The notes below the pieces were generated by a model. It searched no databases and had not been told where the DNA came from. It saw nothing but the letters and a program-made list of their open reading frames with translations. Of a DNA stretch of 64,000 nt, positions 3,626-32,137 are shown one piece after another; position 1 is the stretch's first letter, and each line of letters opens with the position of its first letter. Made by a program: the position numbers and the translations under genes. This stretch comes from Acidimicrobiia bacterium (GTDB taxonomy: Bacteria; Actinomycetota; Acidimicrobiia; IMCC26256; PALSA-610): assembly GCA_038239145.1 (NCBI GenBank), contig JBBSFB010000004.1, positions 19,563-83,562 on the forward strand, written 5' to 3'.

Positions 3626-4650
3626 AGCTCGGGTACATGATCGGCTACTGGGGCGCGCAACCGCCGGTCGGTGTGCCGGAGGCGTTGGCCGTTGCGGAGG
3701 AGATCGGGTTCGACTCGTGCTGGACCGCCGAGGCGTACGGGTCCGACGCGCTCACGCCGCTGGCGTGGTGGGGGGCGGCGACGTCGCGCATCAAGCTCGG
3801 CACGTCGATCTGTCAGATCTCGGCGCGGACGCCCACGGCGATGGCGATGGCCGCGCTCACGCTCGATCATCTCTCGGGCGGAAGGTTCGTGCTCGGCCTC
3901 GGGGTGTCGGGCCCACAGGTTGCCGAAGGTTGGTACGGCGACGACTACAGCAAGCCGCTGGTCCGCACGCGCGAATACGTCGACATCGTCCGCCAGGTCC
4001 TGGCCCGCGAAGCGCCCGTCGAATTCCGAGGCGACCGCTACCAGTTGCCGCTGCCGGGCGGTACCGGGCTCGGGAAGCCGCTGAAGTCGATCACGCACCC
4101 GCGTCGGGCCGACCTGCCGATCTATCTCGCCGCAGAAGGCCCGAAGAACGTGTCGCTCGCGGCCGAGATCGCCGACGGGTGGTTGCCGATGTTCTATTCG
4201 CCCCGCAACGACGGCTTCTATCGGGACGCGATGGCGGCGGGGTTCGCGAGAGACGGGGCGCGCCACCGCGCGGAGACGTTCGAGGTCGCGTGCTTGGTGC
4301 CGGTCATCATCGCCGACGACGTCGAGACCGCGGCCGACATGTACCGCCCGGTCCTTGCGCTCTACATCGGCGGGATGGGTTCACGCGAGGTCAACTTCCA
4401 CAACAACGTGTTCGGGCGGATGGGCTACGAGGACGAAGCCAAGCTCATCCAGGACCTGTATCTCGACGGCAAGAAAGCCGAAGCGGCGGCCGCGGTGCCG
4501 ACGAAGCTCGTCGAGGACGTCGCCCTCATCGGTTCGCGCGAAAAGATCCGCGACGACCTCGCGATGTGGCGGGAATCGGCGGTGACGACGATGGTGGTGT
4601 CCGGCGCGACCGAGCAACTGCGAACCATCGCGGAGCTCGTACTCGGATGA
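3610..4650 (+). CDS. LLM-class (luciferase-like) F420-dependent oxidoreductase
   Basis: 346 aa with segments FDSCWTAEAYGSDALTPLAWW and RFVLGLGVSGPQVAEGWYG, typical of actinobacterial LLM enzymes. It overlaps the upstream gene by 16 nt. Confidence 0.85.
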   Translation: MQNDLKLGYMIGYWGAQPPVGVPEALAVAEEIGFDSCWTAEAYGSDALTPLAWWGAATSRIKLGTSICQISARTPTAMAMAALTLDHLSGGRFVLGLGVSGPQVAEGWYGDDYSKPLVRTREYVDIVRQVLAREAPVEFRGDRYQLPLPGGTGLGKPLKSITHPRRADLPIYLAAEGPKNVSLAAEIADGWLPMFYSPRNDGFYRDAMAAGFARDGARHRAETFEVACLVPVIIADDVETAADMYRPVLALYIGGMGSREVNFHNNVFGRMGYEDEAKLIQDLYLDGKKAEAAAAVPTKLVEDVALIGSREKIRDDLAMWRESAVTTMVVSGATEQLRTIAELVLG

Positions 4651-4663
4651 TCGACCTACTCGC

Positions 4664-17453: not shown

Positions 17454-17509
17454 ACGACCGGGAACCCTAGGCCGGGAGTGGCCGGCACCCGGCTGGGTAA
17501 TCTCGGGGG

Positions 17510-18439
17510 ATGCCCAGTGCCATTTGGACCGGCTCGATCAGCTTCGGCCTCGTACAGGTGCCGGTGCGCCTCGTTGGTGCGACCAAGAGTCGCGACGTGA
17601 GCTTCAACCAGCTCGAAGAGGGGACCGGCGCCCGGATCCGATACAAGAAGGTTTCCGACGCCACCGGCGAAGAGGTCCCGCCCGACAAGATCAAGCGGGG
17701 CTACGAGATCTCCAAGGGTCGCTACGTGATGATCGAGCCGGACGAGCTCGACGTGTTGCGCCCGAAGGGCAGTCACGCGATCGAGATCGAGGAGTTCGTC
17801 GACCTCGACGAGATCGATCCGCTGTACTTCGAACAGCCGTATTACCTCATCCCCGACGCCCGGGGCGTGAAGCCCTACAAGCTGCTCGTCGAGGCGATGA
17901 CCGAGCTCAACAAGGTCGCCATCGGCCGCATCATCGTGCGGAGCAAGGAGCGTCTGGTCGCGATCCGCACCGTCGACGACATGCTCTGCATCGAGACGAT
18001 GCGCTACGCGGACGAGGTCGTGTCCCGCGACAATCTCGTCCCCGACGACGGCGACGTGGAACTGACCGAGCGTGAAGTCGCGATGGCCCGCCAACTCGTC
18101 GAGTCACTCGCGAGCGACCACTTCGAACCGGAGAAGTACCACGACCAGTACCGCGAGCAGGTGCTCGATCTGATCGAGCGCAAGGCTGCGGGCGAGTCGA
18201 TCGTTGCCGAGCCGGTCGCCGAGCCCCCGGCCAAGGTCCTCGACCTGGTCGCGGCTTTGGAGGCTTCGCTCGCGAAAGCGCAAAACGCCAAGGAGCGCCA
18301 CCCGAGCGCCGCCGCAACGGCGCCGGACCGGCCTTCGGCGAAACCGGCGCCGGCCAAGAAGACCGCCAAGAAAACGCCGGCCAAGAAGGCGGCCGACAAG
18401 GCACCGGCCAAGGCTCCCGCCAAGCGGCGCAGCGCCTAG
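17510..18439 (+). CDS. ku: Ku DNA end-binding protein
   Basis: 309 aa starting MPSAIWTGSISFGLVQVPVRL, with YFEQPYYLIPD and a Lys/Ala/Pro-rich C-terminal tail (AKKTAKKTPAKKAADKAPAKAPAKRR). It is divergent from the LigD-Pol gene across 56 bp. Confidence 0.95.
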   Translation: MPSAIWTGSISFGLVQVPVRLVGATKSRDVSFNQLEEGTGARIRYKKVSDATGEEVPPDKIKRGYEISKGRYVMIEPDELDVLRPKGSHAIEIEEFVDLDEIDPLYFEQPYYLIPDARGVKPYKLLVEAMTELNKVAIGRIIVRSKERLVAIRTVDDMLCIETMRYADEVVSRDNLVPDDGDVELTEREVAMARQLVESLASDHFEPEKYHDQYREQVLDLIERKAAGESIVAEPVAEPPAKVLDLVAALEASLAKAQNAKERHPSAAATAPDRPSAKPAPAKKTAKKTPAKKAADKAPAKAPAKRRSA

Positions 18440-18469
18440 CGCGACGAGTTCGTCGCCGCCCGGCGACGG

Positions 18470-18712
18470 CTACGACGCGAGGCGCTTGGGGAGCGGCGGA
18501 GCCGCGGCGCGCCGCGGGAACGCGTGGACCTCGGCCCCGGCCGCCTCGTGATCGGCATCGAGCCACCCGCAGGCGGCGCACACCGGAGAACCGCCGTGGG
18601 CGGGCGCGAAGGCCGTGCACGGTTCGAACGCGGTGCTGACCAGCTCGTACACGTCCATCGTCTGTTCGATCGTCTGCATGGGCGCAACGATGACAGGCGG
18701 GTGTGACACCAA
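18470..18712 (-). CDS. Small hypothetical protein with a CxxC motif
   Basis: 80-codon ORF (or 69 codons from the ATG at 18679) with strongly G/C-biased third positions: ...MQTIEQTMDVYELVSTAFEPCTAFAPAHGGSPVCAACGWLDADHEAAG... I recognise no family. Confidence 0.45.
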   Translation of the reverse strand: MVSHPPVIVAPMQTIEQTMDVYELVSTAFEPCTAFAPAHGGSPVCAACGWLDADHEAAGAEVHAFPRRAAAPPLPKRLAS

Positions 18713-18736
18713 CCCCGAACCGACTGCGATGAAGGC

Positions 18737-19743
18737 CTAGAGGGGCACTCGGCCGTCGAAGGCGGCCCCGGCCGCGAACCGGACCCGAAGGTCGTCGTCG
18801 GCGCGGCGCCGGTGGACGGTCTGGTCGCGCGGCCCACACCGATCTGGGCCAGGCCCCGCAGGGCGTAGTGCCGCACGCAGGCATCCTTGTCGGCGAGCGC
18901 GCGCTCGAAGAGGAGGCGCAGATTCGGCCGGGCGCTGCGGGCGGCGGCGCGGATCGCGGCTCTCCGTACGGCTCGAGACGAGTCCTCTGAGGGATCGGGT
19001 CCAGGGCTGCGCGACCAGCAACGGATCCGCGATCTCGAGCTTGGCCGTCGCGAGGCGGCGGCACGCGGCGTCAGGGGACGGGGTCGCGTCCATGAGGCGC
19101 GCGAGGTCGCGGGGTTCGAGACCTCGAGGGCGCCGATCTCGGACACGGCGCGCTCGTACGCGCGATCGGGGGCGATCGCCCGGGGTGGGACGAACTCGGC
19201 GGTGATCGTGTCGAACACGCGCAAGAGGGTCACGTGCCACTGCTCGGCATCCCCGAGCGCCACCGACACCGCGCCGAGCTCGACCCGCACGCTGTCGATG
19301 TCGTCGAACTCGCGGAACAACGCCGCGACCGCGGCCGAAGAACCCTGGTCATCGCGCGTGAAGCGCCCGCCCTTGCCCGTCGCAACGGGACCGGTCGCGA
19401 ACCTGACCTCGTTCGGTGTGCGCCCGGTCTCGATGATGACGAGCTCTTCGAACGTGTCGCCGAGTGTGCGTTGGTGCGCGGGGACGACCGGATTCGCGAT
19501 CGTCGCATCGGGCACGGCGGCGGTCGCGTCGGCGGGGAGCGGGTCGGCGTTGACCTCGATCTTGAAGTGCGACGATCGCCAGCCGTAGTGCAGGCGAATC
19601 CCGGGCGCGAGCTCTTCCTCGGTCCAGCCGTCGCCGGGTACGACGAGCCCCGACAGGCCCGCATCGTCCTCGACCGTCCAGGGACCTTCGGAGAAGAAGC
19701 GACGGAGCTGGGCGCGAGCGCGATCGACCAAGGTGATCGGCAT
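18737..19743 (-). pseudogene. Nfu_N-like domain plus HEAT/PBS-lyase-like repeat protein, reading frame broken about 3 times
   Basis: - The N-terminal ~205 aa sit in one frame (MPITLVDRARAQL..., IIETGRTPNEVRFATGP, LFREFDDIDSVRVELGAVSVALGDAEQW).
- After that, protein-like sequence and high GC3 alternate between two frames, near 19122, ~19000 and ~18832.
- Frame 2 reads LEPRDLARLMDATPSPDAACRRLATAKLEIADPLLV.
- Frame 1 reads DPSEDSSRAVRRAAIRAA...LLFERALADKDACVRHYALRGLAQIG.
- Frame 2 then reads ADDDLRVRFAAGAAFDGRVPL followed by the stop. Confidence 0.55.
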
Positions 19744-19858
19744 CCGTCCGAACGACGCCCGGGAGACGCGTTCGACGGCGGTTCGCGGCCGCCCCGCACG
19801 GGCAATCCGCAGGCGGGCCGCATCTCGATCATGGGCCAACCCGGAATCGTACGGTCGC

Positions 19859-20905
19859 TCAGACCTGGACTGAGCGACCGTCCTTCCACTCTCTCAGCAC
19901 CAAATAGTGACCTTTGAGTGCCGCGTGGTCCCACGTGCCGAATCCGATGAGCGTTCCCTGGTAGCCGGAGCTGGCCGGGAGCTGCTTCACCCGGCGTAGG
20001 CCGTCGGCGATCCCGGCCCGGGTCAGGTGCTCCGCGGCGGCGATGCCTTCGCCGAGCATGCGCCCCATGTCGTAGGCGGCGCACCCCATCGGCCCGCCCG
20101 CGGCGGCGGGGAACTGCTCGCCGAGCTTGGCCCGCAGGAGGTTGTCGTCGGAGATGGTGTCGATGTACTCCCAACCCGCATAGCCGTCGCGCCAGTCGGG
20201 TTTGGCGTACCCGAACATCAGCGCGGAGTTCGCGAGCACCGGCACCTTCCATCCGAGCGCGTCCAGCCCGAGCGCAACCGCTCGGGACGAGACGCCCAGA
20301 CCGAGGTACACGAGCACGTCGGGGTTCGACTGCCGCAAGCGCTGCAGTTGGTCGGTCGCATCCTCGGCGAGCGAGGAGATGCTCGCGCTGCCGGTGACCT
20401 CGAGCCCGAGCCGCCCCCGTGCCGCCTCGAAAAATTCGGCGTAGCGACGACCGACCGGTGACTGGTCGAAGATGACCGCGACGCGCTTGAATCCGCGCTT
20501 GACCGCGCGTGCGGCGAGCACCGGGGGTTCCTCTTCGAGGGAACCGACCTGGTAGTGGAACATCCATTCGGATCGGGTGCGCTCGCCGCCCGTGTAGTTG
20601 ATGGCCGGGATCTTGGCGGCGTCGCACAACGGCGCGACGATCAATCCGTTGTCGGAGATCGACGGACCGATGATCGCGACGACGCCTTCGTCGTCGAGCT
20701 CCGCAAACGCCCGCTTGACGTCGGCCTCGGTGCCTGAAGGGAGTCCTTGCGACTGGCGTTCGACGAGTTCGATGCCGCGATCGAGGCGGCCGGTTGCGGC
20801 CACCTCGTCGACTCCCAACTGGAGCGACTTCGACACAAGATCGCCCATCTGCGGGAAGTCGTAGAGCAAACCGATACGAACCGGGAGAGCGGAAGAGTTG
20901 GCCAT
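19859..20905 (-). CDS. Type-I periplasmic-binding-protein fold (LivK/AmiC-like) protein without a signal peptide
   Basis: 348 aa. It begins directly with the mature-domain-like VRIGLLYDFPQ and has no hydrophobic leader or lipobox. The rest resembles Leu/Ile/Val-binding-type receptors (VVAIIGPSISDNG, RVAVIFDQSPVGR). Confidence 0.8.
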   Translation of the reverse strand: MANSSALPVRIGLLYDFPQMGDLVSKSLQLGVDEVAATGRLDRGIELVERQSQGLPSGTEADVKRAFAELDDEGVVAIIGPSISDNGLIVAPLCDAAKIPAINYTGGERTRSEWMFHYQVGSLEEEPPVLAARAVKRGFKRVAVIFDQSPVGRRYAEFFEAARGRLGLEVTGSASISSLAEDATDQLQRLRQSNPDVLVYLGLGVSSRAVALGLDALGWKVPVLANSALMFGYAKPDWRDGYAGWEYIDTISDDNLLRAKLGEQFPAAAGGPMGCAAYDMGRMLGEGIAAAEHLTRAGIADGLRRVKQLPASSGYQGTLIGFGTWDHAALKGHYLVLREWKDGRSVQV

Positions 20906-20922
20906 CGTCGTATCCTTTCACG

Positions 20923-21567
20923 ATGCTGCGGGAGAACGTCGAGCGCGTCGCGGGCGACGCGATCCATGCCGCTTGGACCGGCGTTACGCGGCTCGGCGCG
21001 ATAGGCCCGCGGCATCGACGCGCCCGCGCGTTCCACACGTTCGGCGCCGGCAGCATGATCGCGTTTCCGCAGACCGTCGTGTTCGGCGAAGGCCGGATCG
21101 CGTTCGGTCGCGGGAGCACGATCGGTCCGCTCGCGACCATCAGCGCGGGAATGCCGTCGCAGGCCGATCTGCGCGGTGATCCCGTCATCACCATCGGCGA
21201 CCGGTGCATGCTCGGGAAGGGCATCGGCATCGTCGGGCACGAACGGATCGAGATCGGCAACGACATCTGGACCGGCCACTACGTGTACATCACCGATCAA
21301 AACCACGGTTACGAAGACGTCGACGAGCCCATCGGCGTGCAGATGTGGAAGAACGAGCCGGTCTCGATCGGTGACGGCAGTTGGCTCGGTCACGATGCGA
21401 TCGTGCTGCCGGGCTCGCGTATCGGCCGGCACGTCGTCGTGGCCGCGGGCGCGGTCGTCGCGGGCCTACAGGTGCCCGACTATTCGGTGGTCGCGGGGGT
21501 ACCGGCCCGGATCGTGCGCCGGTACGTCGCGGGGGAGGGTTGGCTCACCGTCCCCCGCGACGACTGA
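20923..21567 (+). CDS. Hexapeptide-repeat (LbH) acyltransferase
   Basis: ORF trimmed to the ATG at 20923. Hexapeptide repeats include ITIGDRCMLGKGIGIVG, IEIGNDIWTGHYVYITD, VSIGDGSWLGHDAIVLPGSRIGRHVVVAAGAVV and GVPARIV. Confidence 0.8.
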   Translation: MLRENVERVAGDAIHAAWTGVTRLGAIGPRHRRARAFHTFGAGSMIAFPQTVVFGEGRIAFGRGSTIGPLATISAGMPSQADLRGDPVITIGDRCMLGKGIGIVGHERIEIGNDIWTGHYVYITDQNHGYEDVDEPIGVQMWKNEPVSIGDGSWLGHDAIVLPGSRIGRHVVVAAGAVVAGLQVPDYSVVAGVPARIVRRYVAGEGWLTVPRDD

Positions 21568-21593: not shown

Positions 21594-23351
21594 TCAGCCC
21601 GCGTTCGGCGCGCCGGCCGGCAGCGGGGTCTTCTTGGGTCGCAGCGCCGCCGGGATGTCGGCCGGCGCGTAGACCGTCACCGTGTTGGCTTTGCCGAAGA
21701 GCGGCATGGGCGCGGTGGGCCATTGGCTCGGGAGGTAGCGCACGCCGCCGTCCATGAGCCGGTACATCCCGGTGCCCTGGTTCCCGGTCTCGTCGGGCCC
21801 GGTCGCGGTGGGGTCCCACCACTCGACGCCGGCGTTATCGAGACCGGCGGGGTCGTCGCCGGACCAGAAGCCGTGGTTGCCGTAGGTCACAATCGTCTGG
21901 ATCGTCGGCACCGTTGTCGACGCGATCGGCGAGGAGGCGTCCATGCCGTTCTTGAATGCCGCGGGCGTGAGCGTCGGGCCCGCGAGCTGCAGGCCATCGA
22001 AGAGCAACTCGACGTCACCCTTCACGATGCCGTAGGCGTTGTCGTCCGGGGGAGCCGCGTTGTTGAACCACCACTGATGCAGCGTGAACGCGTCCTGTTC
22101 GGCCTGCGGGATGCGGGCCGGGATCAGTTGCAACCCGAACGCGTGCACCCACTGCTTCTGATCGAACTGCCGCGCGAACACGTTCGTGTCGGCGAGCACC
22201 GTTCCGGACATCACCCACTCGGGGAAGTAGCCCTCCTTCGTCATCTCCGTGGTCAAGAAGATGGGGAAGATGGGGTCGCCGGTGAACAAGATGCTCGTCG
22301 CGTTCTTCTGCTTGAGCCGGGTGGCGATGGTGCGAGCGTCGGCCTGCAGCGTCGGGATGTTCAAGTAGTAGTCGACGTGGTCGACGACGTTGACGCCGGT
22401 CGCCCTGAGCTTCGTCTCGAGGTCGTCCCAGGCCGAGCGGTACTGGTTGTCGGGAGTGTCGTAGGTGAGCATCGTGAACGTACGCGGCTTGCCCGCGAGC
22501 TGGGGGCCGGCCCACTTCGCAGGCTTACCCGCGAGCTGGTTCTTGATGAACGTCGTGATCATCGTCGAGGTCTGGTCGGGTGAGGGACCGGTCGGCCAGA
22601 GGTACGGCTGGTTGTCCTCGTAGTACTTCTGCGGTTGCGACGTGATGCACGATCCGATGCACAGGATCTTCTTCTGGGAGAGCTCGTCGGAGAAGGCTTT
22701 GGTCTGCGTCGGTCCGCCCACGACCGCGAACACACCGGCGGCCGCGGCGCGGTCGGCGTCGGCCCGAGCCTGGACGGAGTCGGCGCTCGCGCCGGAACCG
22801 TCGATGCGGACCAACTGGACCTTGCGGCCGTAGAGCTCGAAGGTTCCGCCGTAGATCGCGCTGTAGTCCTTGATCGCCTGGGCTGTCTTGTCGGGAGGGT
22901 CGTACGCGCCGGCCTTCGCGAGCACTCCGTCGAGGGTGGGGTCGGGCTTGGCGATGTAGTACCCGATCTTGATAGCGGTCGCGGTCACCCCCGGCGCCGT
23001 GGCCCCGCCGTTGCCGGCGGTGAAGTCCTCGACACACGGCGGCGGATTGAGGATGGGGATCGCGACCCGCCCGGTCGTGGTGTCGCAGTTGTGCCACTGC
23101 TTCGAGGCCGCAGTGCCCTGAGCCTTGGCGTCGTTGTAGAAGAGGGGCACGCCGTTCTTGCCGGACACGCTCGCGGCGGGCGTGGACGGGCTGGCACCCC
23201 CGACCTTCACATCGGTCGCCTTCTTGTCGCCCCCGCCGCGCGTTGCGAGCACGGCTACGACGATTGCGACGACCACGGCGACCGCGATGAACGGCGCGTA
23301 TCGCATCAAGGGCGACTTCTGTCGTCGCTGTGGCGTCTGTTGCAATCCCAT
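21594..23351 (-). CDS. Membrane-anchored ABC substrate-binding protein (large type-I PBP)
   Basis: 585 aa. An N-terminal TM/signal anchor (YAPFIAVAVVVAIVVAVLAT) is followed by a disordered linker and a LivK-like domain. It is the last gene of the transporter operon. Confidence 0.8.
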   Translation of the reverse strand: MGLQQTPQRRQKSPLMRYAPFIAVAVVVAIVVAVLATRGGGDKKATDVKVGGASPSTPAASVSGKNGVPLFYNDAKAQGTAASKQWHNCDTTTGRVAIPILNPPPCVEDFTAGNGGATAPGVTATAIKIGYYIAKPDPTLDGVLAKAGAYDPPDKTAQAIKDYSAIYGGTFELYGRKVQLVRIDGSGASADSVQARADADRAAAAGVFAVVGGPTQTKAFSDELSQKKILCIGSCITSQPQKYYEDNQPYLWPTGPSPDQTSTMITTFIKNQLAGKPAKWAGPQLAGKPRTFTMLTYDTPDNQYRSAWDDLETKLRATGVNVVDHVDYYLNIPTLQADARTIATRLKQKNATSILFTGDPIFPIFLTTEMTKEGYFPEWVMSGTVLADTNVFARQFDQKQWVHAFGLQLIPARIPQAEQDAFTLHQWWFNNAAPPDDNAYGIVKGDVELLFDGLQLAGPTLTPAAFKNGMDASSPIASTTVPTIQTIVTYGNHGFWSGDDPAGLDNAGVEWWDPTATGPDETGNQGTGMYRLMDGGVRYLPSQWPTAPMPLFGKANTVTVYAPADIPAALRPKKTPLPAGAPNAG

Positions 23352-23424
23352 TCGAACGTCCCCCTGTCGTGGTGTTGCTACCTGTCTGGTCGAGCGAGCG
23401 CCCGGCTGATTCGGATACGTGTTC

Positions 23425-26400
23425 TTAGACCGGTTGGACCCCGCTGCGGGCGATGGCCGCTTCGCTGGTGCCCAGATACGAGTGCACGACGATCGGGTCG
23501 TTCACGACTTCGTCTGGCGCGCCGGTCGCGACCACCTCGCCGAGATCGAGCGCGACGAGCCGGTCGGAGATGCTGAGCAGAAGCGGGACGTCGTGCTCGA
23601 TGACGAGGAGCGTCGCGCCGGTCTGCTCGCGGATGCTCAGGAGCAACGGTCCGAGCGCCTCGGCTTCGCGCTGGGCGATGCCCGACGACGGCTCGTCGAG
23701 GAGCATGACCGTGGGGTTGTGCGCCAGTTGGCACGCGAGGTCGACGATGCGTCGGCTGCCTGTCGACAGCTCGCGTATGAGCTTGTCGCGGAAGTCGGTG
23801 ATGCCGAGGAGCTCGAGCAGGCGCTCGACGTTCTCGTTGACGTCCTTCTCCGTGTGCGCGACCGACGGCAATCGCAGCGCCGCCGCGATGGGATCGCGTA
23901 TCTCGAGGTGGCGTTCGAAGGCGATCGACACCGTCTCGGCCACGCTGAGGTTCGGGAAGAGCCGACCGTCTTGGAACGAACGACCGAGCCCGAGCTTCGA
24001 GCGGGCGACCGCCGACATCCCGGTCACGTCTTGGGCTTCGTCGCCCTCGCCGAGGATGATGGTGCCACGATCCGGCGTGACGAAGCCCGAGATGGTGTCG
24101 AACAACGTGGTCTTGCCCGCTCCGTTCGGTCCGATGAAGCCGATGATCTCGCCCGCCGCGGCCTGGAGCGACACGTCGGTCAGCGCGGCGAGGCCACCGA
24201 ATCGTTTTGAGATGTCGAGGAGGCCGAGCCGGACCGGGGCGTCCTCGAGCGAGTGTCCGTTCGACGTGGGTGCCTCGAGGTGCGCGACCGTCGCGGGCAC
24301 GATCTGCGTGGGCGTCGCCGCGTGACCATTCCCGGCGTGACCATTCGCGGCGTGACCGTTCGTGCTCGCCTCGTGCTCCATGCCCGACTGTGCGCCTTCG
24401 AGGAAGACCGAGCGCAACACGTCGGGGCGTTCGAGCAGCTCGGCGGTGGGACCGTGGAAACGGATCTCGCCCTTCTCCATGAAGTACGCCGTCTGCGCGA
24501 TCGTCAGCGCAAGGTTCACCGATTGCTCGACGAGGATGATCGTCGTGCCCTGCGCAGAGATGTCGCGGACGATCGGGAGAAGCTGCTCGACGACAGCCGG
24601 CGCGAGACCGAGGGAGAGCTCGTCGATCATCAGGAGCCGCGGCTTCTCGATGAACGCCATCCCGAGCGCGAGCATCTGCTGCTGGCCGCCGGAGAGATTG
24701 CCCGCGGGCTCGTCCAGGCGCCCCCGCAGGACCGGGAACAGCTTCAGGACGTGCTCGGTCGACTCCGCGACGAGCGCCTTGTCCTTGCGGTGCAACCAGC
24801 TCGCCAGGCGCAGGTGGTCGGCGACGCTCAGCGTGGGGAACACGCCCTGCCCGCCCGGCATCTGCACCACGCCACGTCCCGCGACCTCGTTCGGAGGCGC
24901 GTAGGTCATGTCGCGACCGTCGAATACGACCGCGCCGTTCGTCGCCTCGACGAGTCCGGAGATCGTCTTCAGCAGGGTCGATTTCCCGGCGCCGTTGGTG
25001 CCGAGGAGGGCGACGATCTCGCCTTCGTCGACCTCGAAGTTCACGCCGAACAAGACCTGCACGTTGTCGTAATGCACATCGACGTTGCGGACGAGCAGCA
25101 GCTTCACCTCGCCCTGCTGGCGCTTCAGCATCACCTCGGCCTGGGCCGCGGTGGAGGTCCACACCCGGTTGATGTCGCTGCGCACGTACATCGATCCCGA
25201 GGCGAGGATCCACGCCCCTATGAGGAAGATGGGCGCCACCACGAGTAGACCCGCACGCAGTCCGTAGGTGTCGGCGATCGCGCCGACGACGTAGAGCGCG
25301 ACGAGGCCGGGCACGATGAACAGCGTCGCCATCGCGTAGCCCATGGAACGCACTTTTGGAGGTATCGCGAGTGAGAGCGACGCGTAGATACCGGGCACGA
25401 GCAACGACGCGAACGCGGCGACGAGGAAGTTCATCGCGATCGCGAGCCACAGCCACGGTGCGAGAGCGAACAGCACCCAGGCGGCCGCGACGAGCACGCC
25501 GACCACTGCGAGCATCTTGAGGCCGAGGCCGGGGTCGCGCAGCATGAGCCGCGATGCAAGCGGGATGCCGAGCAGGAGGGCCACGATCTGGCCCGGCTCT
25601 GCGAACGCGGCGACGAGGCCGCGCTGGAAGTCGTCGAGATGGAAGACCTGCTCGTAGTACAGCGATGTGAGGGTGATCAGCCCGATGAACGCAGCCGCGA
25701 GGAAGGGCAGTGAGTACCAGATCCGGCGCAGGGTGCCGACCTGCCAGAGGATGCGGATCGACTCCGAGAACGACGGCGGCACCTCGTCGGTGTCGATCAC
25801 AGCCGCGTTGGCGCCCGCGGCCTCACGTTCCCAGTGCCCGCGCCCGGGTTCCTTCAAGCGCAGACCGAGGAGCACGAACCCGATCGTCGGGATCACGAAG
25901 ATGATGAACGGCAGGCGCCAGCCGAAGACCTGCCCGAGCATGCCGCCCAAGGCGCCGCCGAAGAACGCACCGAAGGCGAGACCGATCTGGTGCGAGCCGA
26001 ACACGTCGGCGCGCACTTCGGGCGGGTGATAGTCGGAGAGCAGCGAGTTGTGGGTCGGCGCGATGACTGCCCGCCCGACGCCGCTCCCGGAGCGGGCGAC
26101 GATCAGGAACGCGAGCGCGAACGAGAGCCCGGTGAAGAGCCCGAACACGGCCCAGATCACTGCGCCGGCGAGCGCGAGCGCGACGCGCGGGATCCGGTCG
26201 GAGTAGTAGGCGAGTGGAACCGGTAAGAGGAGCGCGCCGAGCGTCGTCAGCGCGACGAGGGTGAGGAAGCCGCCGTTCGACAGGTGGAACGAGTCGCGGA
26301 TGTCGGGGGCGAGGATGCCGAACGCGGTCTGGTCGAGTTGGCTGGAGAAGTTCAGTCCGACCAGGACGATCAACGGCAGGAGTGCTTCGCCGCCGCTCAC

Positions 26401-26499
26401 CTCGTCGAAGAATTGACGGGGCGCGCGCGGGAGGTGACAGTCGACGCCCCAGATGCGGAACAGCACCCGGCGGGGCTGTTTGACGAAGGGTGTGCGCAC
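23425..26499 (-). CDS. Triple-domain fusion: MFS permease domain - LivF-like ATPase - LivG-like ATPase
   Basis: The 1706-aa ORF was trimmed to the GTG at 26499, which overlaps the upstream TAG by 1 nt.
- MFS-like part: YYSDRIPRV, ARSGSGVGRAV and many hydrophobic spans.
- NBD1: GTNGAGKST, LSGGQQQ, LLMIDELSLGL.
- Linker: NGHAANGHAGNGHAA.
- NBD2: GPNGAGKTT, LSTGSRR, VMLLDEPSSGI. Confidence 0.8.
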   Translation of the reverse strand: MRTPFVKQPRRVLFRIWGVDCHLPRAPRQFFDEVSGGEALLPLIVLVGLNFSSQLDQTAFGILAPDIRDSFHLSNGGFLTLVALTTLGALLLPVPLAYYSDRIPRVALALAGAVIWAVFGLFTGLSFALAFLIVARSGSGVGRAVIAPTHNSLLSDYHPPEVRADVFGSHQIGLAFGAFFGGALGGMLGQVFGWRLPFIIFVIPTIGFVLLGLRLKEPGRGHWEREAAGANAAVIDTDEVPPSFSESIRILWQVGTLRRIWYSLPFLAAAFIGLITLTSLYYEQVFHLDDFQRGLVAAFAEPGQIVALLLGIPLASRLMLRDPGLGLKMLAVVGVLVAAAWVLFALAPWLWLAIAMNFLVAAFASLLVPGIYASLSLAIPPKVRSMGYAMATLFIVPGLVALYVVGAIADTYGLRAGLLVVAPIFLIGAWILASGSMYVRSDINRVWTSTAAQAEVMLKRQQGEVKLLLVRNVDVHYDNVQVLFGVNFEVDEGEIVALLGTNGAGKSTLLKTISGLVEATNGAVVFDGRDMTYAPPNEVAGRGVVQMPGGQGVFPTLSVADHLRLASWLHRKDKALVAESTEHVLKLFPVLRGRLDEPAGNLSGGQQQMLALGMAFIEKPRLLMIDELSLGLAPAVVEQLLPIVRDISAQGTTIILVEQSVNLALTIAQTAYFMEKGEIRFHGPTAELLERPDVLRSVFLEGAQSGMEHEASTNGHAANGHAGNGHAATPTQIVPATVAHLEAPTSNGHSLEDAPVRLGLLDISKRFGGLAALTDVSLQAAAGEIIGFIGPNGAGKTTLFDTISGFVTPDRGTIILGEGDEAQDVTGMSAVARSKLGLGRSFQDGRLFPNLSVAETVSIAFERHLEIRDPIAAALRLPSVAHTEKDVNENVERLLELLGITDFRDKLIRELSTGSRRIVDLACQLAHNPTVMLLDEPSSGIAQREAEALGPLLLSIREQTGATLLVIEHDVPLLLSISDRLVALDLGEVVATGAPDEVVNDPIVVHSYLGTSEAAIARSGVQPV
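24321..24365 (-). repeat. In-frame 15-bp tandem repeat (x3) encoding NGHA(A/G) in the inter-NBD linker
   Basis: Plus-strand units are cgtgaccattcccgg / cgtgaccattcgcgg / cgtgaccgttcgtgc. Confidence 0.85.
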
Positions 26500-28637
26500 T
26501 ACTCCCTGACCTCGACGAGGGTATCGGTCTCGATGCCACCTGCGGTCAGCGCGCCGTACAGGTCGGAGCCTTCGGGCGGCGCGGCGGCTTCCAGACGGGT
26601 GTCGGCCAGCAGGCTCGGCACGCGGATGTGGTTCTTGCGGGCGTACCAGCGCAACGCGCCGTCGCGCGCGTCGCCGAGCGCGGCCCCGAGACCGCCGGGC
26701 AGGATCATCAGCACCAACAACAACCCCGCGCCCGTCGACAGGAACGCCCATTCCGGCTGCACGAGGAAGTACTCGATGCCCTTGACGAAGATGGCGCCGA
26801 TCACCGCGCCACCGATCGAGCCGAGACCACCGACGACCACCATCGCGAAGACGCGCAGCCCCGCGATCGGGTCGAAGTTGTCGGCGTCGAGCGCGTGCTG
26901 CTGGAGCACGAGGAGGGCGCCGGCGATGCCCGCGAGGAAGCCGGAAACCGCAAACGCCATCACGAGGGCGCCGCGCGTGCCGACCGCGTAGGCCTGGGCC
27001 GCGCGCTCGTTGTCGCGTACCCCGATGAGGACCCGTCCGATCCGACTGCTGCGCAGACCCCGCACCATCCACAGCGACAGTGCGAAGAGCACGACGACCA
27101 ACACGTAGAAGCCGCGCTCGCCGTTGACCGCGATGACGCCGAGGACGTGGGTGCGCGGAACCCGGACCGAACCGTCGGGGACCCAACTCTTGAGCGGCGA
27201 ATACCCGACGTTGAGCAGATAGCTCGAGGTCAACAACGAGAACGCGAGTGTGGCCACCGCGAACGCGAGCCCGCGGGCCCGCAGCGTAGGGAGGCCGACG
27301 AGCACGGTCGTGAACGCGCCGACTGAGCCCGCGGCCAACAAGATGAACGCGATGTCCCAGTGGTAGCGGGTCGCGAGCGTTCCCGCGACCGCGCCGGCGA
27401 CGCCGACGAATGCCATCTGGCCCAGGCTCACCTGACCGGCCCAACCGGTGAGCACGACCAACGACAGCCCGATGATCGCGAAGATCCCGATCGTCCCGAT
27501 GAGCTTCACGTGCACCGACGAGAAGATGAACGGGATCAGCGCGAGGAAGCCCACCACGAGCGCGGCGAGCGCGGCGCGCGTCGCCCGGATCGCGGGGACA
27601 CGCCGGAGCTCGGCGGGGATGGCCTTGATCTCGCGGGTCGCCTGCCACGTGGAGGTGGCGGCGCTCGACAGCCGGTCGATCGTCTGCGTGCGCTGCAGCA
27701 GCAGCGCGATCAGGACGATTGCGGCGGGGAGCGCGGTGCCGAAGGAGATCGACGGATAGTGGTATATCGCCGCCTTCTCCACGATGCTCAGGCCGACGGC
27801 TGCGAGCACCGCCGTCGGCATCCGCTCCATGCGGGCGATGACCGCCGCGCCGAGCGCCATCAGCAACAGGCTCGGGTCGAGGGCGCGTCCGATACCGAGG
27901 CCGACGACGCCAATGCGCAGGTACATCGCGACGAACGCGAGCGCGGCTGCGAGGCCCCACACGACGCTCTGGAGGCGCCGCACAGGGATGCCGAGGAGTG
28001 AGGCCCGATCGGCGTTCTCCGCGCTGGCCTGGAGCGCGACACCCGTGGCGCTGAGCCGGAAGAAGGCGGCGAGGCCGATCAGCACGATCGGCACGACGAT
28101 GATGACGAGCACGTCGTTGCCGTCGAACACCGCGCCCGAGACGCTGAACGTCGCGTGGAAGAAGGGCGGGTACGTGCTGTCGCTCGGCTGCCCGAGCCAC
28201 GAGGGCAAGAAGAGACCGAGCGCGATCAACAAGTCGGTCACCCCGATCGTGACGACCGTGAGGATGAGCCGGGGCGCCTTGAAGAAGATCCGCAGGAACA
28301 AGAACTCGACCAGTACGCCGAGCAGGATCGCAGATCCGAAGCCGATGGCGAGCGAGAGGTAGATGTTCCAACCCAGGGACGCCCAGAGCAGGAACGCGAA
28401 GCTCGCGGGCGCGGCGCCGATGTCGGCGGCGGCGAAGTTCACGATGCGGTTCGCGCGGTAGACGATCACGAACGCGAGCGCGATGAGCCCGAGTAGCAGA
28501 CCTTGTATCGCCCCGTCGACGTAGATCCCGAGCGGCACCCTCCAACCCGGCGCCAGCTTCACCGCCGCGACCATGAGCGCGAGCGGGACCAGCGCGACGC
28601 CGGCCGACCGGAACATGACGCGCGGGTCGCGCGTCAC
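26499..28637 (-). CDS. Fused LivH-LivM-type branched-chain amino acid ABC permease
   Basis: 712 aa made of two consecutive BPD_transp_2-like halves. The first has VIVYRANRIVNFAAADIG. The second has LSLVVLTGWAGQVSLGQMAFVGVAG and VRDNERAAQAYAV. The GTG start overlaps the TetR TGA (GTGA). Confidence 0.85.
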   Translation of the reverse strand: MTRDPRVMFRSAGVALVPLALMVAAVKLAPGWRVPLGIYVDGAIQGLLLGLIALAFVIVYRANRIVNFAAADIGAAPASFAFLLWASLGWNIYLSLAIGFGSAILLGVLVEFLFLRIFFKAPRLILTVVTIGVTDLLIALGLFLPSWLGQPSDSTYPPFFHATFSVSGAVFDGNDVLVIIVVPIVLIGLAAFFRLSATGVALQASAENADRASLLGIPVRRLQSVVWGLAAALAFVAMYLRIGVVGLGIGRALDPSLLLMALGAAVIARMERMPTAVLAAVGLSIVEKAAIYHYPSISFGTALPAAIVLIALLLQRTQTIDRLSSAATSTWQATREIKAIPAELRRVPAIRATRAALAALVVGFLALIPFIFSSVHVKLIGTIGIFAIIGLSLVVLTGWAGQVSLGQMAFVGVAGAVAGTLATRYHWDIAFILLAAGSVGAFTTVLVGLPTLRARGLAFAVATLAFSLLTSSYLLNVGYSPLKSWVPDGSVRVPRTHVLGVIAVNGERGFYVLVVVLFALSLWMVRGLRSSRIGRVLIGVRDNERAAQAYAVGTRGALVMAFAVSGFLAGIAGALLVLQQHALDADNFDPIAGLRVFAMVVVGGLGSIGGAVIGAIFVKGIEYFLVQPEWAFLSTGAGLLLVLMILPGGLGAALGDARDGALRWYARKNHIRVPSLLADTRLEAAAPPEGSDLYGALTAGGIETDTLVEVRE

Positions 28638-29269
28638 TCGACCGCCGCCCGGAGGTGCAGCATGATGGAGTCGACGACGCAGCTCAGCGCGGCTTCGACG
28701 GAGAGGTCATGTCGTTCGCGCAAGGTCTGCCACGCATCGGGGCTCGTGAGCACGTCGAGCACGGCCACGGTGTGCGCCCGGTTCGGCTCGTCGAGTCGTT
28801 GCAACTCCCGGGCGAAGACGCGCTCGAGATCGGAGCGGGACAGCGCCCGCGCGTCGCGCAAGATCCGCGCGAGCGTGGGCGAGAATTCGGCGTGCAGACG
28901 GGTTGCGCGACCGACCGCGCCGGTCTTCGCGTACAGCCGCACCCGTTGGAGGGCGAGCGCATGCGCCCGTTCGCCCAAGGGCCCGGTCGAGGGTGCGGGG
29001 GTGAGCATCGGCGCGATCCGGGTGAAGTGACGATCGGCGGCGACACAGAAGAGATCTTCGAGGTCGTCGAAGTGGACGTACACGGACCGCACCGACACCT
29101 CGGCCCGTTCGGCGATCTCCTTGGCCGTCGGGCGCAAGGCTCCGTCGGCGAGCAGGTCGAGCAGGGCGTCTGCGATCGCGCCTCGGGTCTTGGTCGAGCG
29201 GGCCGTTCGCCCGTCGACCGCCCGTGTGCCTGCGGGTGTTGTCACCTCGACCGGCTGAGGCCCGTTCAC
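28634..29269 (-). CDS. TetR-family transcriptional regulator
   Basis: ORF trimmed to the GTG at 29269. The HTH segment is TRGAIADALLDLLADGALRPTAKEIAERAEVSVRSVYVHFDDLEDLF. It is the first gene of the transporter operon. Confidence 0.8.
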   Translation of the reverse strand: MNGPQPVEVTTPAGTRAVDGRTARSTKTRGAIADALLDLLADGALRPTAKEIAERAEVSVRSVYVHFDDLEDLFCVAADRHFTRIAPMLTPAPSTGPLGERAHALALQRVRLYAKTGAVGRATRLHAEFSPTLARILRDARALSRSDLERVFARELQRLDEPNRAHTVAVLDVLTSPDAWQTLRERHDLSVEAALSCVVDSIMLHLRAAVE

Positions 29270-29304: not shown

Positions 29305-29404
29305 AAGATGGTGGGGCGAACGGTCGAGCAGGCGGTCGGCGAGCCGGCCACGCGGGATCGGAAAATCGGGCGGGCGCCGGAGTGCCGATCGTTAACGTTG
29401 GTGT

Positions 29405-31435
29405 ATGCCGCACCCGGACGTCTCGTTCGAACGCGCGCGCCTGGACTTCGCGCAATCGTGTCTCCGGGCCATGCGGGAACGCACCGCCGGCAAGCTCGAA
29501 AACGACGACATCCTCGCCGCCAACGAGGCCGACACCGAGGCCGTGCGCTGGCAGTTGCAGCGCCGGCTTGCGTCGCTCGACGATGACCTTGCGGTGCTGT
29601 GTTTCGGCCGGATCGACGAGGAGTCAGGCGAGCGTTGGTACGTGGGGCGCCGTCACATCGAGGACGCCGACGGCACGCCGGTGGTGGTCGACTGGCGGGC
29701 GGGCGTCGCCACCCCGTTCTACCGGGCCACGCTGGCCGACCCATTCGGGCTCGAGCGCCGCCGGCGATTCGTGTTCAGTGCACGCGAGCTCGCCGACGTC
29801 TTCGAAGAGGACTTCAGCGATCCCGACTCGCTCGCGGGTTCGGGCGGCGTGCCCGACCCGTTGCTGGCAGAGCTCGGTCGGGCCCGGACCGGCCAGATGC
29901 GCGACATCGTCGCGACGATCCAGGCGGAACAGGACGCGATCATCCGGGCGCCGATCGAGACGTGCCTCGTCGTCCAGGGCGGTCCCGGCACCGGGAAGAC
30001 CGCGGTGGGTCTGCACCGCGCTGCGTTCCTGCTCTACGAGCACCGCGCTCGACTGGCCCGGGAAGGTGTGCTCGTCGTCGGGCCGAACCCGGTGTTCCTG
30101 CGCTACATCTCCCAGGTCCTGCCGTCGCTGGGAGAAACGTCGGCGACGCAGACGACGGTCGACGGTCTGCTCTCGCTGCGCTTCCGGATCGTCGCGCACG
30201 ACCCGATCTCGGCGGCGGCGGTCAAGGGCGACGCACGGATGACGGAGGTGATCGCACGCGGGGCCGCCGACGCGATCCGGCCTCCTGTGGAAGGCGTCAC
30301 GGTCCGGTTCCGTACCCGCCAGATTGCGATCGGCGCCGACGACGTCGCCGATCTCGTCCAGGACGCGCGCCGCCGTGACGCCCCCTTCTCGACCCAACGC
30401 GAGCGCTTCCGCCAAGCGCTGGTACGACGCGCGTACGACCGGTACACCGGCGGTGTCGCGATCGAGCTCGACGAACACGACTTCGGGGTCGCGGTCCTCG
30501 CCGACGCCGAGTCGCGCAAGGCAATCGACGGCTGTTGGCGCAGCGTGAGCGCCGCCACACTCGTGCGCACGCTGCTGACCCAGCGCGCCTTCCTCGCCCG
30601 CGCCGCCGACGGTGTGTTGACCGCAGCCGAGCAGCAGCTGATCCTCCGGCCGCGGGCGGCGGCCGAGTCGTGGACCGCCGACGACCTCCCCCTGATCGAC
30701 GAAGCGGAGTCGTTCGTGAAGGGAGCACCCCGTCGATTCGGTCACGTCGTCGTCGACGAGGCCCAAGACCTCTCACCGATGCAGCTGCGCGTGCTCGCGC
30801 GCCGGGCCCGACGCCATTCGATGACCGTGCTCGGGGACCTCGCGCAGGCGACCGGCCCCGCGTCGCCCGCGACGTGGGACGCGACGCTCGCGCACCTCGG
30901 CGCGCCGGAGAACGCGCAACCGGCCGAGCTGACGATGGGCTACCGCTTGCCGGGCGCGTTCCTCGAGCTCGCGAACCGGTTACTCCCGATCGCGGCGCCG
31001 GGTGTCGTGCCGTCGCGATCTGTCCGGGCCGACGGCGATCCCGCCGACGTGCGCGAGTTCGATCCCGACGTGCTGGTCGCCTCGATCGCCGACCACGCGC
31101 TCGTGCTCGCCAAGGAGTTCGGAAGCGTCGCGGTGATCGCGGCCGACGCGCACGTCGACGAGCTCCGGCGCGCGATCGAGGACCGCGGCGTCGTGCTCGC
31201 CGAGCCCGGCGAGGTCGATCCCGATCGCCCACTCGTCGTGCTGGCGGCGCGGCTCGCCAAGGGCCTCGAGTTCGACGCGGTCGTGGTGGCGGAGCCGGCC
31301 GCGATCGTGGCCGAGGAGCCGCACGGTGTGCGGCTGTTGTTCGTGGCCCTGACGCGGGCCGTGCAACACCTCGCGTTGGCCCATGCACAACCGCTGCCCG
31401 CCGCGCTCGCCGACGAGCGGACGGACGCCGGGTGA
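29405..31435 (+). CDS. helD: HelD/HelR-type UvrD-like ATPase (RNA polymerase-associated helicase IV family)
   Basis: 676 aa with YVGRRHI, VVQGGPGTGKTAVGLHRAAFLLY, VVVDEAQDLSPMQLRVL, LTMGYRLP and GLEFDAVVV...LFVALTRAVQHL. Confidence 0.85.
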   Translation: MPHPDVSFERARLDFAQSCLRAMRERTAGKLENDDILAANEADTEAVRWQLQRRLASLDDDLAVLCFGRIDEESGERWYVGRRHIEDADGTPVVVDWRAGVATPFYRATLADPFGLERRRRFVFSARELADVFEEDFSDPDSLAGSGGVPDPLLAELGRARTGQMRDIVATIQAEQDAIIRAPIETCLVVQGGPGTGKTAVGLHRAAFLLYEHRARLAREGVLVVGPNPVFLRYISQVLPSLGETSATQTTVDGLLSLRFRIVAHDPISAAAVKGDARMTEVIARGAADAIRPPVEGVTVRFRTRQIAIGADDVADLVQDARRRDAPFSTQRERFRQALVRRAYDRYTGGVAIELDEHDFGVAVLADAESRKAIDGCWRSVSAATLVRTLLTQRAFLARAADGVLTAAEQQLILRPRAAAESWTADDLPLIDEAESFVKGAPRRFGHVVVDEAQDLSPMQLRVLARRARRHSMTVLGDLAQATGPASPATWDATLAHLGAPENAQPAELTMGYRLPGAFLELANRLLPIAAPGVVPSRSVRADGDPADVREFDPDVLVASIADHALVLAKEFGSVAVIAADAHVDELRRAIEDRGVVLAEPGEVDPDRPLVVLAARLAKGLEFDAVVVAEPAAIVAEEPHGVRLLFVALTRAVQHLALAHAQPLPAALADERTDAG

Positions 31436-31462: not shown

Positions 31463-32137
31463 ATGGGCGAGTCTGCGCCGGTACACATCACGACCCGCTC
31501 CGGAAAGGTGCGGGTCGTTGCCGTTCCCGGCTGTGAGCTCTCGGTCGTAGGCGGCACGATCGAGCTCCACGACGACGGCAGCGTGCACATCCGGCGGGAG
31601 AGTTCCTCGGACTCGATCGAGGTGCAGTGTGCGCCCGGCACCGACGTCACGGTCGGCACCTCGTCCGGGAAGGTCGATCTCGCCGGCCGGCTCGGAGCGG
31701 TTCGAGTGGCGACGTCCAGCGGCCGGATCCGCATCGAGGAAGCCGACCGCATCGATGTACGCACGCACTCCGGGAACATCGATGTCGGTTGGTGCGTCGG
31801 CGCGTGCCGGATCATGACCAAGAGCTCGGGCGTCCACGTCCGCCGAGCGGGTAGGGCGACCGTGGCTGCGGTCTCGGGCATCGTGTTGCTGGAGGAGGTC
31901 GGCGGGGCCGAGGTAAAGGCGGTCAGCGGGAAGGTCCTGATCGGCGCGACCGGTGACCAACGCGTCTCGGTGCACAGTGTCTCGGGCAAGGTCGAGATCA
32001 AGGTTCCCGCGTCGGCGCGGCCGTCGACCCGCCTGCGCTCCATGAGCGGCCGCATCGTGAACGATCTCGAACCCGGCGACCAGTTCGAGATCTCGGTCAA
32101 GAGCATCACCGGTGCGATCCGGGTGTCGAGCGCCTGA
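31463..32137 (+). CDS. DUF4097-like beta-helical repeat protein
   Basis: 224 aa with a recurrent S/T-S-G-(K/R/N)-(V/I) motif: TRSGKVRV, TSSGKVDL, TSSGRIRI, THSGNIDV, AVSGKVLI, SVSGKVEI, SMSGRIVN, SITGAIRV. Confidence 0.7.
   Translation: MGESAPVHITTRSGKVRVVAVPGCELSVVGGTIELHDDGSVHIRRESSSDSIEVQCAPGTDVTVGTSSGKVDLAGRLGAVRVATSSGRIRIEEADRIDVRTHSGNIDVGWCVGACRIMTKSSGVHVRRAGRATVAAVSGIVLLEEVGGAEVKAVSGKVLIGATGDQRVSVHSVSGKVEIKVPASARPSTRLRSMSGRIVNDLEPGDQFEISVKSITGAIRVSSA

Follow-up and report, generated by a model that had tools for sequence, protein, structure and literature searches.

In a 64,000-nucleotide stretch of the genome of an Acidimicrobiia bacterium (assembly GCA_038239145.1, contig JBBSFB010000004.1, positions 19,563 to 83,562; hereafter the window), we find, in this soil actinobacterium, an operon for an ATP-binding cassette (ABC) importer, resembling those of the HAAT family, whose two ATPases are fused in a single protein to a complete domain of the major facilitator superfamily (MFS). 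ABC and MFS proteins constitute the two largest transporter superfamilies and are seen as mechanistically separate, the former being driven by ATP and the latter by ion gradients. The MFS-LivF-LivG fusion is real and no artefact of assembly; it is ancient and widespread in Actinomycetota, and its ancient conserved unit is MFS-LivF. An initial annotation of this stretch, made from the sequence alone, had already recognized a complete importer with an extra MFS domain joined to its ATPases, and all its structural claims were borne out. To these, the present analysis adds the MFS-LivF core unit, the likeness of the MFS domain to Spinster transporters, a stalk helix between the membrane domain and the ATPase that is more constrained than any other segment, and the presence of the module in the genome of a cultured member of the Streptomycetaceae.

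Anatomy of the fusion and its operon

The operon comprises four translationally coupled genes, given here in order of transcription with their window coordinates:

28634–29269, minus strand: TetR-family regulator, first gene of the operon, with a Pfam TetR_N match; start uncertain
26499–28637, minus strand: fused LivH-LivM permease (LivHM), 712 amino acids (aa), with two BPD_transp_2 stretches; stop codon at 26499–26501
23425–26499, minus strand: the whole MFS-LivF-LivG fusion gene, a stop-free frame of 1024 aa plus stop, backed by Pfam, NCBIfam and third-position GC
21594–23351, minus strand: membrane-anchored substrate-binding protein (SBP), 585 aa, with one N-terminal transmembrane (TM) helix and a LivJ/LivK-like fold in its AlphaFold2 model

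The coupling can be read directly from the bases: the GTG start of LivHM (28637–28635) overlaps the TGA stop of the regulator (28636–28634) in the tetranucleotide GTGA (28634–28637), and the GTG start of the fusion gene (26499–26497) shares a single base with the TAG stop of LivHM (26501–26499), both junctions being as first described. The fusion gene itself is translated over 1024 codons without a stop, and its product, with two nucleotide-binding domains (NBDs), parses into the following segments:

26395–26499, minus strand: N-terminal cytoplasmic segment (residues 1–35), with a predicted beta-hairpin at residues 12–22 in the AlphaFold2 model (predicted local distance difference test score, pLDDT, ~86)
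25189–26394, minus strand: 12-TM MFS domain, Spinster-like (residues 36–437), identified by MFS_1, AlphaFold2, Foldseek and a profile match to HnSpns
25102–25188, minus strand: stalk helix from TM12 to NBD1 (residues 438–466), modelled as a helix at 439–461 that directly continues TM12; D442 invariant
24400–25101, minus strand: NBD1, a LivF/UrtE-type ATPase (residues 467–700), matched by ABC_tran, with UrtE and LivF models covering 467–701
24229–24399, minus strand: low-complexity linker of Gly, His, Asn and Ala between NBD1 and NBD2 (residues 701–757), with 21% mean identity in the family
23428–24228, minus strand: NBD2, a LivG/UrtD-type ATPase (residues 758–1024), with NCBIfam UrtD/LivG models covering 758–1011

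Third-position GC in this frame remains at 0.85–0.95 from one end of the gene to the other, its two domain junctions not excepted. A pattern scan covering a single genome for each GTDB species recovered 16 related loci, all in metagenome-assembled genomes (MAGs) of Acidimicrobiia or Actinomycetes, and tblastn with the four window proteins found the order TetR-LivHM-fusion-SBP kept in most of them. In nine other species-level genomes (L002, L003, L005, L007, L008, L009, L010, L011 and L013), short-read assemblies among them, the fusion occupies a single full-length frame at overall identities down to 60%, and the orthologues measure 1010–1053 codons from the start of the match to the first stop; the L006 gene is likewise in one frame except for its first ~25 residues. 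The suspicion that a separate MFS gene had been joined to livF and livG by an overlooked stop, by a frameshift or through chimeric assembly draws on frame breaks at related long-read MAG loci (L004, L014–L016). However, multiple breaks in the fusion gene are confined to the long-read MAGs L014–L016, which we read as generic indel errors because the LivHM and SBP genes at these loci are broken too, and L004 has one break in the fusion gene matched by one in LivHM. With the junction in frame in the nine other species and in a complete isolate genome, with third-position GC unbroken at the junction, and with the junction being the best-conserved region of the protein, an artefactual origin is rejected, its probability being practically negligible; the frameshift that the initial annotation had named as fatal to its reading did not turn up.

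The membrane portion is a complete, bona fide MFS domain. Pfam MFS_1 matches it with E=8e-34 (117.5 bits against a cut-off of 33.4), and an AlphaFold2 model of residues 1–466, built from 37 sequences, has a pLDDT of 91.4 and a predicted template modelling score of 0.88, with 12 TM helices and a small N-terminal beta-hairpin; in the segment bearing the latter, the peptide FRIWGVDC is conserved among close orthologues. The concern that profile searches might fail to call an MFS fold is thereby settled in favour of a full 12-TM domain. A Foldseek comparison with the PDB returned 479 matches at E<=1e-3, and all 50 of those listed are MFS transporters, the best being HnSpns (6e9c), human Spns1 (9boi) and SPNS2, followed by DgoT, sialin, NorA, MdfA and EfpA. 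HnSpns is also the best sequence match of the domain (phmmer, 1.9e-17), and the family profile matches its structure 6e8j at E=3.5e-44. By fold and profile the domain is thus Spinster- and DHA-like and, among the matches, closest to Spinster.

The conserved motifs of the superfamily can be placed on this model. Of the two peptides that had been assigned to motif-A-like positions, YYSDRIPRV (residues 98–106; window 26182–26208) is indeed motif A, lying in the TM2-TM3 loop and aligning with MWADRGNRV of HnSpns, whereas ARSGSGVGRAV falls in TM4 at the position of motif B, both in the model and in the alignment with HnSpns, and so is not part of motif A. No change at D101 or R105 of motif A is seen among 17 divergent fusions or in any of the operon variants. 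TM1 carries a family-consensus Asp-Arg pair that is D56-Q57 in the window protein, its acidic residue being retained in most members of the family. Motif C in TM5 (GxxxGPxxGG) has the consensus GAxxGPLxGG among close relatives and reads GAFFGGALGG in the window; its conservation across the family is weak.

The ATPase portion, with two ABC_tran stretches in Pfam (E=6e-58), has the order first proposed, a LivF-like NBD followed across the Gly/His/Asn linker by a LivG-like one. NBD1 has the Walker A motif GTNGAGKST (500–508), the signature LSGGQQQ and the Walker B motif LLMIDE, all kept across the family, and finds its best PDB match in 1ji0 (E=1.3e-54). NBD2 has the corresponding motifs GPNGAGKTT (790–798), LSTGSRR and VMLLDE, after which comes a BCA_ABC_TP_C tail (24.0 bits, slightly below the cut-off of 25.5). 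It is 55–57% identical to the stand-alone LivG proteins of two related loci (L019 and L024); where LivG is a separate gene, the linker is missing.

The remaining parts of an importer are encoded on either side. LivHM contains two BPD_transp_2 (PF02653) stretches (E=1.3e-46; 159 bits against a cut-off of 26.8), which identify the 712-aa protein as a fused LivH-LivM, as had been proposed for 26499–28637, with a LivH-like half at ~27633–28637 and a LivM-like half at ~26502–27632; it has ~18–20 hydrophobic segments, and a sequence search of the PDB detected no relative of it. The binding protein has a sole TM segment at residues 19–37 (window 23241–23297). Although the window protein itself has no match in Pfam, NCBIfam or a phmmer search of the PDB, 16 of 37 sampled orthologues match Peripla_BP_6 (PF13458), and its AlphaFold model, also from 37 sequences (pLDDT 88.2), is matched by Foldseek to 3eaf, 4q6b, 4xfk, 4n0q and 1z15 (LivJ) at E~1e-13, that is, to cluster-B proteins of the LivJ/LivK type. 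Fold and orthologues thus support the earlier prediction of a membrane-anchored type-I binding protein. To the LivJ-like core it adds a Cys-containing N-terminal and a beta-rich C-terminal part, with C89, C106, C231 and C235 invariant; it has more than 230 homologues, and nearly all the full-length ones listed measure 555–598 aa.

As a separate observation, the frame of the fusion gene is open for 1706 codons backward through LivHM (window 23425–28545, minus strand), so one indel near the TAGTG junction would yield a LivH-LivM-MFS-LivF-LivG mega-protein. Cluster representatives such as P0297 (LivH-LivM-MFS, 940 aa) have an arrangement of this kind, whether as real variants or through sequencing errors.

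Distribution and constraint

The breadth of the fusion emerges from an exhaustive HMMER search in which the MFS domain was run against 1.84 billion cluster representatives, giving 291 clusters at E<=1e-30. Domains were parsed for the 140 top-listed clusters that were new relative to an earlier homologue search, with the following result:

Complete MFS-NBD1-NBD2, 903–1034 aa: 17 clusters
Complete MFS-NBD1, 675–755 aa: 11 clusters
Truncated fusions: 20 clusters
Whole MFS with no NBD visible: 27 clusters
Fragments: 65 clusters

MFS plus NBD is accordingly found in at least 48 of these 140 top-listed clusters. Identity of the MFS domain to that of the window descends to ~30% within the fusion clusters and to ~28% in the loci examined. 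A profile search of a word-indexed protein collection gave 243 further proteins, and most of the 120 listed are MFS-LivF proteins of 680–730 aa; it listed none longer than 811 aa, though orthologues of ~1000 aa exist in the same collections, and its length distributions therefore under-represent the three-domain form. These MFS-LivF proteins come from Acidimicrobiales, Acidimicrobiaceae, Gaiellales, Frankiaceae and unclassified Actinomycetota MAGs, and bear source names such as ‘MFS transporter’, ‘ATP-binding protein’ and ‘ABC-type branched-chain amino acid transport ATPase component/predicted MFS permease’. A database survey, proposed at the outset as a way in which the claim of an unusual architecture might fail, thus reveals a fusion that is common in sequence data, with no sign of a characterised class.

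The genes around the fusion fall into four layouts:

(i) Window type: also at the P0202 locus and at L017/L018, with SBPs 47–51% identical
(ii) LivHM, then MFS-LivF, then a separate LivG: L019, L024 and L025
(iii) SBP, then MFS-LivF, then LivH-LivM-LivG as a single protein of 937–954 aa: L022/L023
(iv) MFS-LivF, then a 71-aa open reading frame (ORF), then an anchored SBP-like protein of 534 aa, then LivHM: L026

Each of the eight sampled loci has LivH/M and LivG sequence adjoining MFS-LivF, and seven of them have a binding-protein candidate there as well. L019 and L024 have a divergent SBP-like gene of 651–664 aa upstream on the opposite strand; at the L025 locus no SBP candidate was found. 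MFS-LivF is thus always accompanied by HAAT-type parts in the sampled loci. LivG is an appendage that defines the three-domain form of certain lineages, including the window clade and also clusters whose MFS domain is only ~30% identical.

A tblastn search of PLSDB extends layout (iii) to Embleya sp. NBC_00888, a cultured member of the Streptomycetaceae. Its locus (L028; NZ_CP108785.1, ~4,149,130–4,155,600) encodes, in order, MFS-LivF (754 aa), LivH-LivM-LivG (937 aa), a lipoprotein SBP with Peripla_BP_6 (451 aa) and a GH3 enzyme. The stand-alone MFS relatives P0312 and P0459 are not beside ABC genes, nor is there a split ‘Rosetta-stone’ arrangement at these two loci. The wider neighbourhoods vary, with Amidohydro_2 and a CoA-transferase at L022, GH3 and a cutinase in Embleya, and a hexapeptide transferase and a cytoplasmic Peripla_BP_6 protein in the window.

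Two details stand apart from this survey. The separate LivG of L024 (9121–10311, from an Acidimicrobiales MAG) has a C-terminal tail of ~130 residues, rich in Lys, Ala and Pro, with a low-complexity resemblance to histone-like or HU tails. The Embleya record is a 5.7-Mb ‘plasmid’ in PLSDB with eight annotated features, and a cutinase and an alpha/beta hydrolase lie upstream of the operon.

Selective constraint on the segments of the fusion was estimated by the Nei-Gojobori method, comparing the window with its six closest full-length orthologues; the ratios of nonsynonymous to synonymous substitution rates (dN/dS) below are to be read with the proviso that synonymous sites are biased and partly saturated in this 68% GC genome:

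MFS (35–437): 0.06–0.12
Stalk (438–466): 0–0.06
NBD1 (467–700): 0.03–0.07
NBD1-NBD2 linker (701–757): 0.33–0.97, near neutral
NBD2 (758–1015): 0.07–0.21

The MFS domain is comparable in this respect to NBD2, and the stalk has the lowest value of all segments in five of the six closest comparisons. Across 17 full-length fusions whose MFS domains are 30–50% identical, the positions that vary little or not at all comprise D101, R102 and R105 of motif A; the stretch ‘SLLSDY..P..R’ in the loop between TM4 and TM5 (L4-5), with D156; a WR pair before TM6; EPxRG after TM6 (P218, R220, G221); R384 in the loop between TM10 and TM11 (L10-11); and D442. All four layouts, that of Embleya included, keep these residues, and D442, where the stalk begins, is unchanged in every variant. 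Since canonical functional positions of MFS proteins are conserved and dN/dS is low, the domain is under purifying selection and has been kept conformationally competent. By the same measures no other part of the protein is as constrained as the stalk joining MFS to LivF, whereas the segment between LivF and LivG is a mere tether.

Possible roles of the MFS domain

The reading that we favour, at even confidence, is that the MFS domain is a working and probably proton-coupled transporter for a molecule related to, or produced from, the solute taken up by the ABC route, with its cycle allosterically coordinated with that of the ATPases. The anchored binding protein would hand the solute to LivHM, and the LivF-LivG dimer would power its uptake, the importer direction being supported by the LivJ-type fold and the TM anchor of the binding protein. 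The MFS domain has both termini in the cytoplasm, and TM12 continues without a break as a helix of ~23 residues that ends at NBD1, from which we infer that the domain would lie laterally against LivHM in the membrane with LivF held beneath. LivF is permanently joined to the C-terminal end of a Spinster-like MFS domain by a conserved and rigid stalk helix, with LivG added through a floppy linker. The MFS domain would most likely export the related or product molecule or exchange it, and the connection from TM12 through the stalk to NBD1 would couple its state to the ATPase cycle, the two fluxes being coordinated at a 1:1 stoichiometry.

Several points weigh against this proposal. No substrate is assigned to either the ABC or the MFS route. 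The MFS module is paired with very different binding proteins (419, 451, 534, 585 and ~650 aa) and neighbourhoods, a diversity easier to reconcile with a generic role, structural or regulatory, than with a second pathway matched to the substrate. The antiporter motif C is poorly conserved, and the Asp-Arg of Spinster TM1 is Asp-Gln in the window protein. The conservation of the gating motifs could partly reflect constraints of folding or stability, and the synonymous rate underlying dN/dS is biased at high GC and near saturation for distant pairs. Finally, both the contact of the MFS domain with LivHM and transmission through the stalk are presumptive.

Some of these same points lend weight to an alternative that we hold unlikely though far from negligible, namely that the MFS domain transports nothing and acts as an anchor or assembly scaffold, pinning LivF, and here LivG as well, beside LivHM for stoichiometric assembly. 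Consistent with this are the weakness of motif C, the indifference of the MFS module to the type of binding protein and to genomic neighbourhood, and the pervasive fusion of subunits in these systems, LivH-LivM being joined in the window and LivH-LivM-LivG forming proteins of 937–954 aa in L022 and Embleya. However, a single TM helix would suffice for anchoring, whereas in the 12-TM domain motif A, EPxRG and the residues of L4-5 and L10-11 stay invariant at 30–50% identity, with a dN/dS of ~0.06–0.12, and most members retain the acidic residue in TM1. The preservation of these conformational motifs is equally compatible with a sensor, or transceptor, in which a ligand of the MFS domain, be it the substrate, a product or a lipid, acts through the rigid stalk to gate NBD closure by trans-inhibition or trans-activation with no net transport by the MFS domain; we consider this rather improbable. 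NBD-fused domains are known to regulate ABC importers, for instance the C2 domain of MetN and the regulatory domains of MalK, and the stalk, with its invariant Asp, being the most constrained segment would suit such a role, but these known regulatory domains are C-terminal and soluble, the support for a sensor is indirect, and the present data do not separate it from a true transporter.

A more radical possibility is that the segment from TM12 through the stalk to LivF is a mechanical coupling, such that ATP-driven closure of the LivF-LivG dimer drives or gates alternating access in the MFS domain in tandem with the SBP-dependent importer, for example in an obligatory exchange of import for export, which would make the whole a genuine chimera of primary and secondary transporter; we regard this as decidedly doubtful. 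To our knowledge, ATP-coupled alternating access has not been described for the MFS. Still less probable is a chimeric primary-active class in which the LivF-LivG dimer also, or instead, drives the rocker-switch of the MFS domain via the TM12 stalk. The order of membrane domain, stalk and NBD recalls ABC half-transporters, the stalk is extremely conserved, and both NBDs of L022 and of Embleya come fused to a membrane domain of their own. Against this, ordinary LivH/M is always present as the expected docking partner of both NBDs, no coupling helix can be recognised in the MFS domain, to which just one of the NBDs is attached, and we found no precedent for such a machine. The coordinated secondary transporter remains the reading that we prefer.

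A conserved and strongly selected covalent union of a complete MFS domain with the ATPase of an ABC importer implies functional cross-talk outside current models of transport, which could consist in the coordination of import with export, in allosteric gating or in an MFS domain coupled to ATP. Among soil Actinomycetota the module is abundant, most of all in Acidimicrobiia, the physiology of which is poorly known, and it could reveal how they handle a class of nutrients or lipids. Its presence in the complete genome of the cultured Embleya opens the question to genetics, reconstitution and cryo-electron microscopy, and a solved complex would also supply the structure of a HAAT-type permease.

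Neighbouring genes and relation to known transporters

The regulator at the head of the operon matches TetR_N (PF00440) over its N-terminal helix-turn-helix (25.9 bits against a cut-off of 24) and may start at GTG 29269 or at TTG 29455, the latter giving the longest ORF. A TetR match precedes LivHM at 13 of the 16 related loci; none was seen by tblastn at L008, L015 and the truncated L012/L013. An inverted-repeat search for a TetR operator gave no pairs and nothing longer than an 8-bp perfect palindrome, CGTTAACG, at 29390–29397 in the divergent region between the TetR and helicase genes, which is a possible operator half-site. A sigma-70 promoter scan returned no sites, every terminator-like site lies within coding sequence, and Rfam has no match in the entire window.

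The operon is flanked on the plus strand by genes for a Ku protein (17501–18436), a UvrD-like helicase divergent from TetR (29405–31435) and a DUF4097 ‘toastrack’ protein (31463–32137); the neighbours of L017/L018 likewise include Ku, LigD and a helicase. Next to the operon lies a trio encoding a 348-aa Peripla_BP_6/ANF_receptor protein (19859–20905, minus strand), a hexapeptide-repeat transferase (20794–21567, plus strand) and a HEAT-like ORF (18436–19839, minus strand). The first of these has no signal peptide and is cytoplasmic and AmiC-like. The same trio occurs downstream of the operon in a relative whose SBP is 51% identical, an association that could be functional or syntenic only. Farther off, a single stop-free frame at 4586–6634 (plus strand) joins DUF480 (residues 30–175) to a full aldehyde dehydrogenase domain (224–677) and may encode a DUF480-Aldedh fusion protein.

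Set against known transporters, the MFS domain shares with the Spinster family (TC 2.A.1.49; HnSpns 6e8j/6e9c, human Spns1, SPNS2) motif A, the Arg/Gly motif of TM4, the L4-5 ‘DYYPP..R’ signature and the TM1 Asp. Its membership of that family is tentative, since Asp-Arg of TM1 has become Asp-Gln; in addition, the TM4 Glu of HnSpns is replaced and the likeness is strongest in the N-domain. Moreover, the Spinster hits are stand-alone chains of ~450–570 aa, engineered tags aside, whereas the window domain is fused to ABC ATPases; we know of no Spinster family member with ATPase domains. DHA-type exporters (EfpA, QacA, EmrB, NorA, MdfA) are the next-best matches in sequence and fold and give the domain an exporter-like flavour, but motif C is not conserved family-wide, there are 12 rather than 14 TM helices, and no drug-efflux context is evident. 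With ABC half-transporters the fusion shares a membrane domain followed by an NBD on one chain, yet this membrane domain is not of the ABC type and a separate pair of ABC membrane domains is also present.

Also comparable are other fusions in which an MFS domain is joined to an enzyme or a signalling domain, as in the MFS-enzyme fusion LplT-Aas and the sensor-kinase-MFS proteins (TC 2.A.1.34). A transporter census lists the latter as the SK-MFS family, cites the LplT study and records other transporter fusions, none of an MFS with an ABC ATPase (Getsin et al.; PMC3924187). Our full-text literature search found no description of such a fusion, with InterPro, CDART and TCDB lying outside that search, so that an entry there may have been overlooked; among the best 25 of 217 NCBIfam matches none is a model specific to it. 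Automatic source annotation already shows both domains, and the fusion is apparently uncharacterised as a class of transporter.

The nearest kin of the system as a whole are the HAAT importers (TC 3.A.1.4; LivJ/K-LivHMGF, BraCDEFG, UrtABCDE), with which it shares two BPD_transp_2 domains, LivF- and LivG-type ATPases and a cluster-B binding protein of the LivJ fold, all in one operon. Assignment to the Urt urea or E. coli-type Liv systems was considered and rejected, the NCBIfam scores lying below the equivalog cut-offs for UrtB (49.7 against 250), UrtC (72.8 against 296), UrtD (286 against 304), LivG (277 against 362), LivF (244 against 441), LivM (58 against 366) and LivH (40 against 379), and UrtE exceeding its own (290.5 against 285.8) solely by summing both NBDs; a branched-chain amino acid or urea substrate therefore cannot be assumed. 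The window system further differs from these importers in that LivH is fused to LivM and LivF to LivG, and its binding protein, anchored by a TM helix, exceeds theirs by ~200 aa and has diverged too far for Pfam to recognise. Above all, HAAT systems consist of ABC-type domains only, with no secondary carrier, whereas here LivF bears an N-terminal 12-TM domain recognized by MFS_1. In the remainder of its parts it works like, and mostly qualifies as, an ABC importer of the HAAT family.

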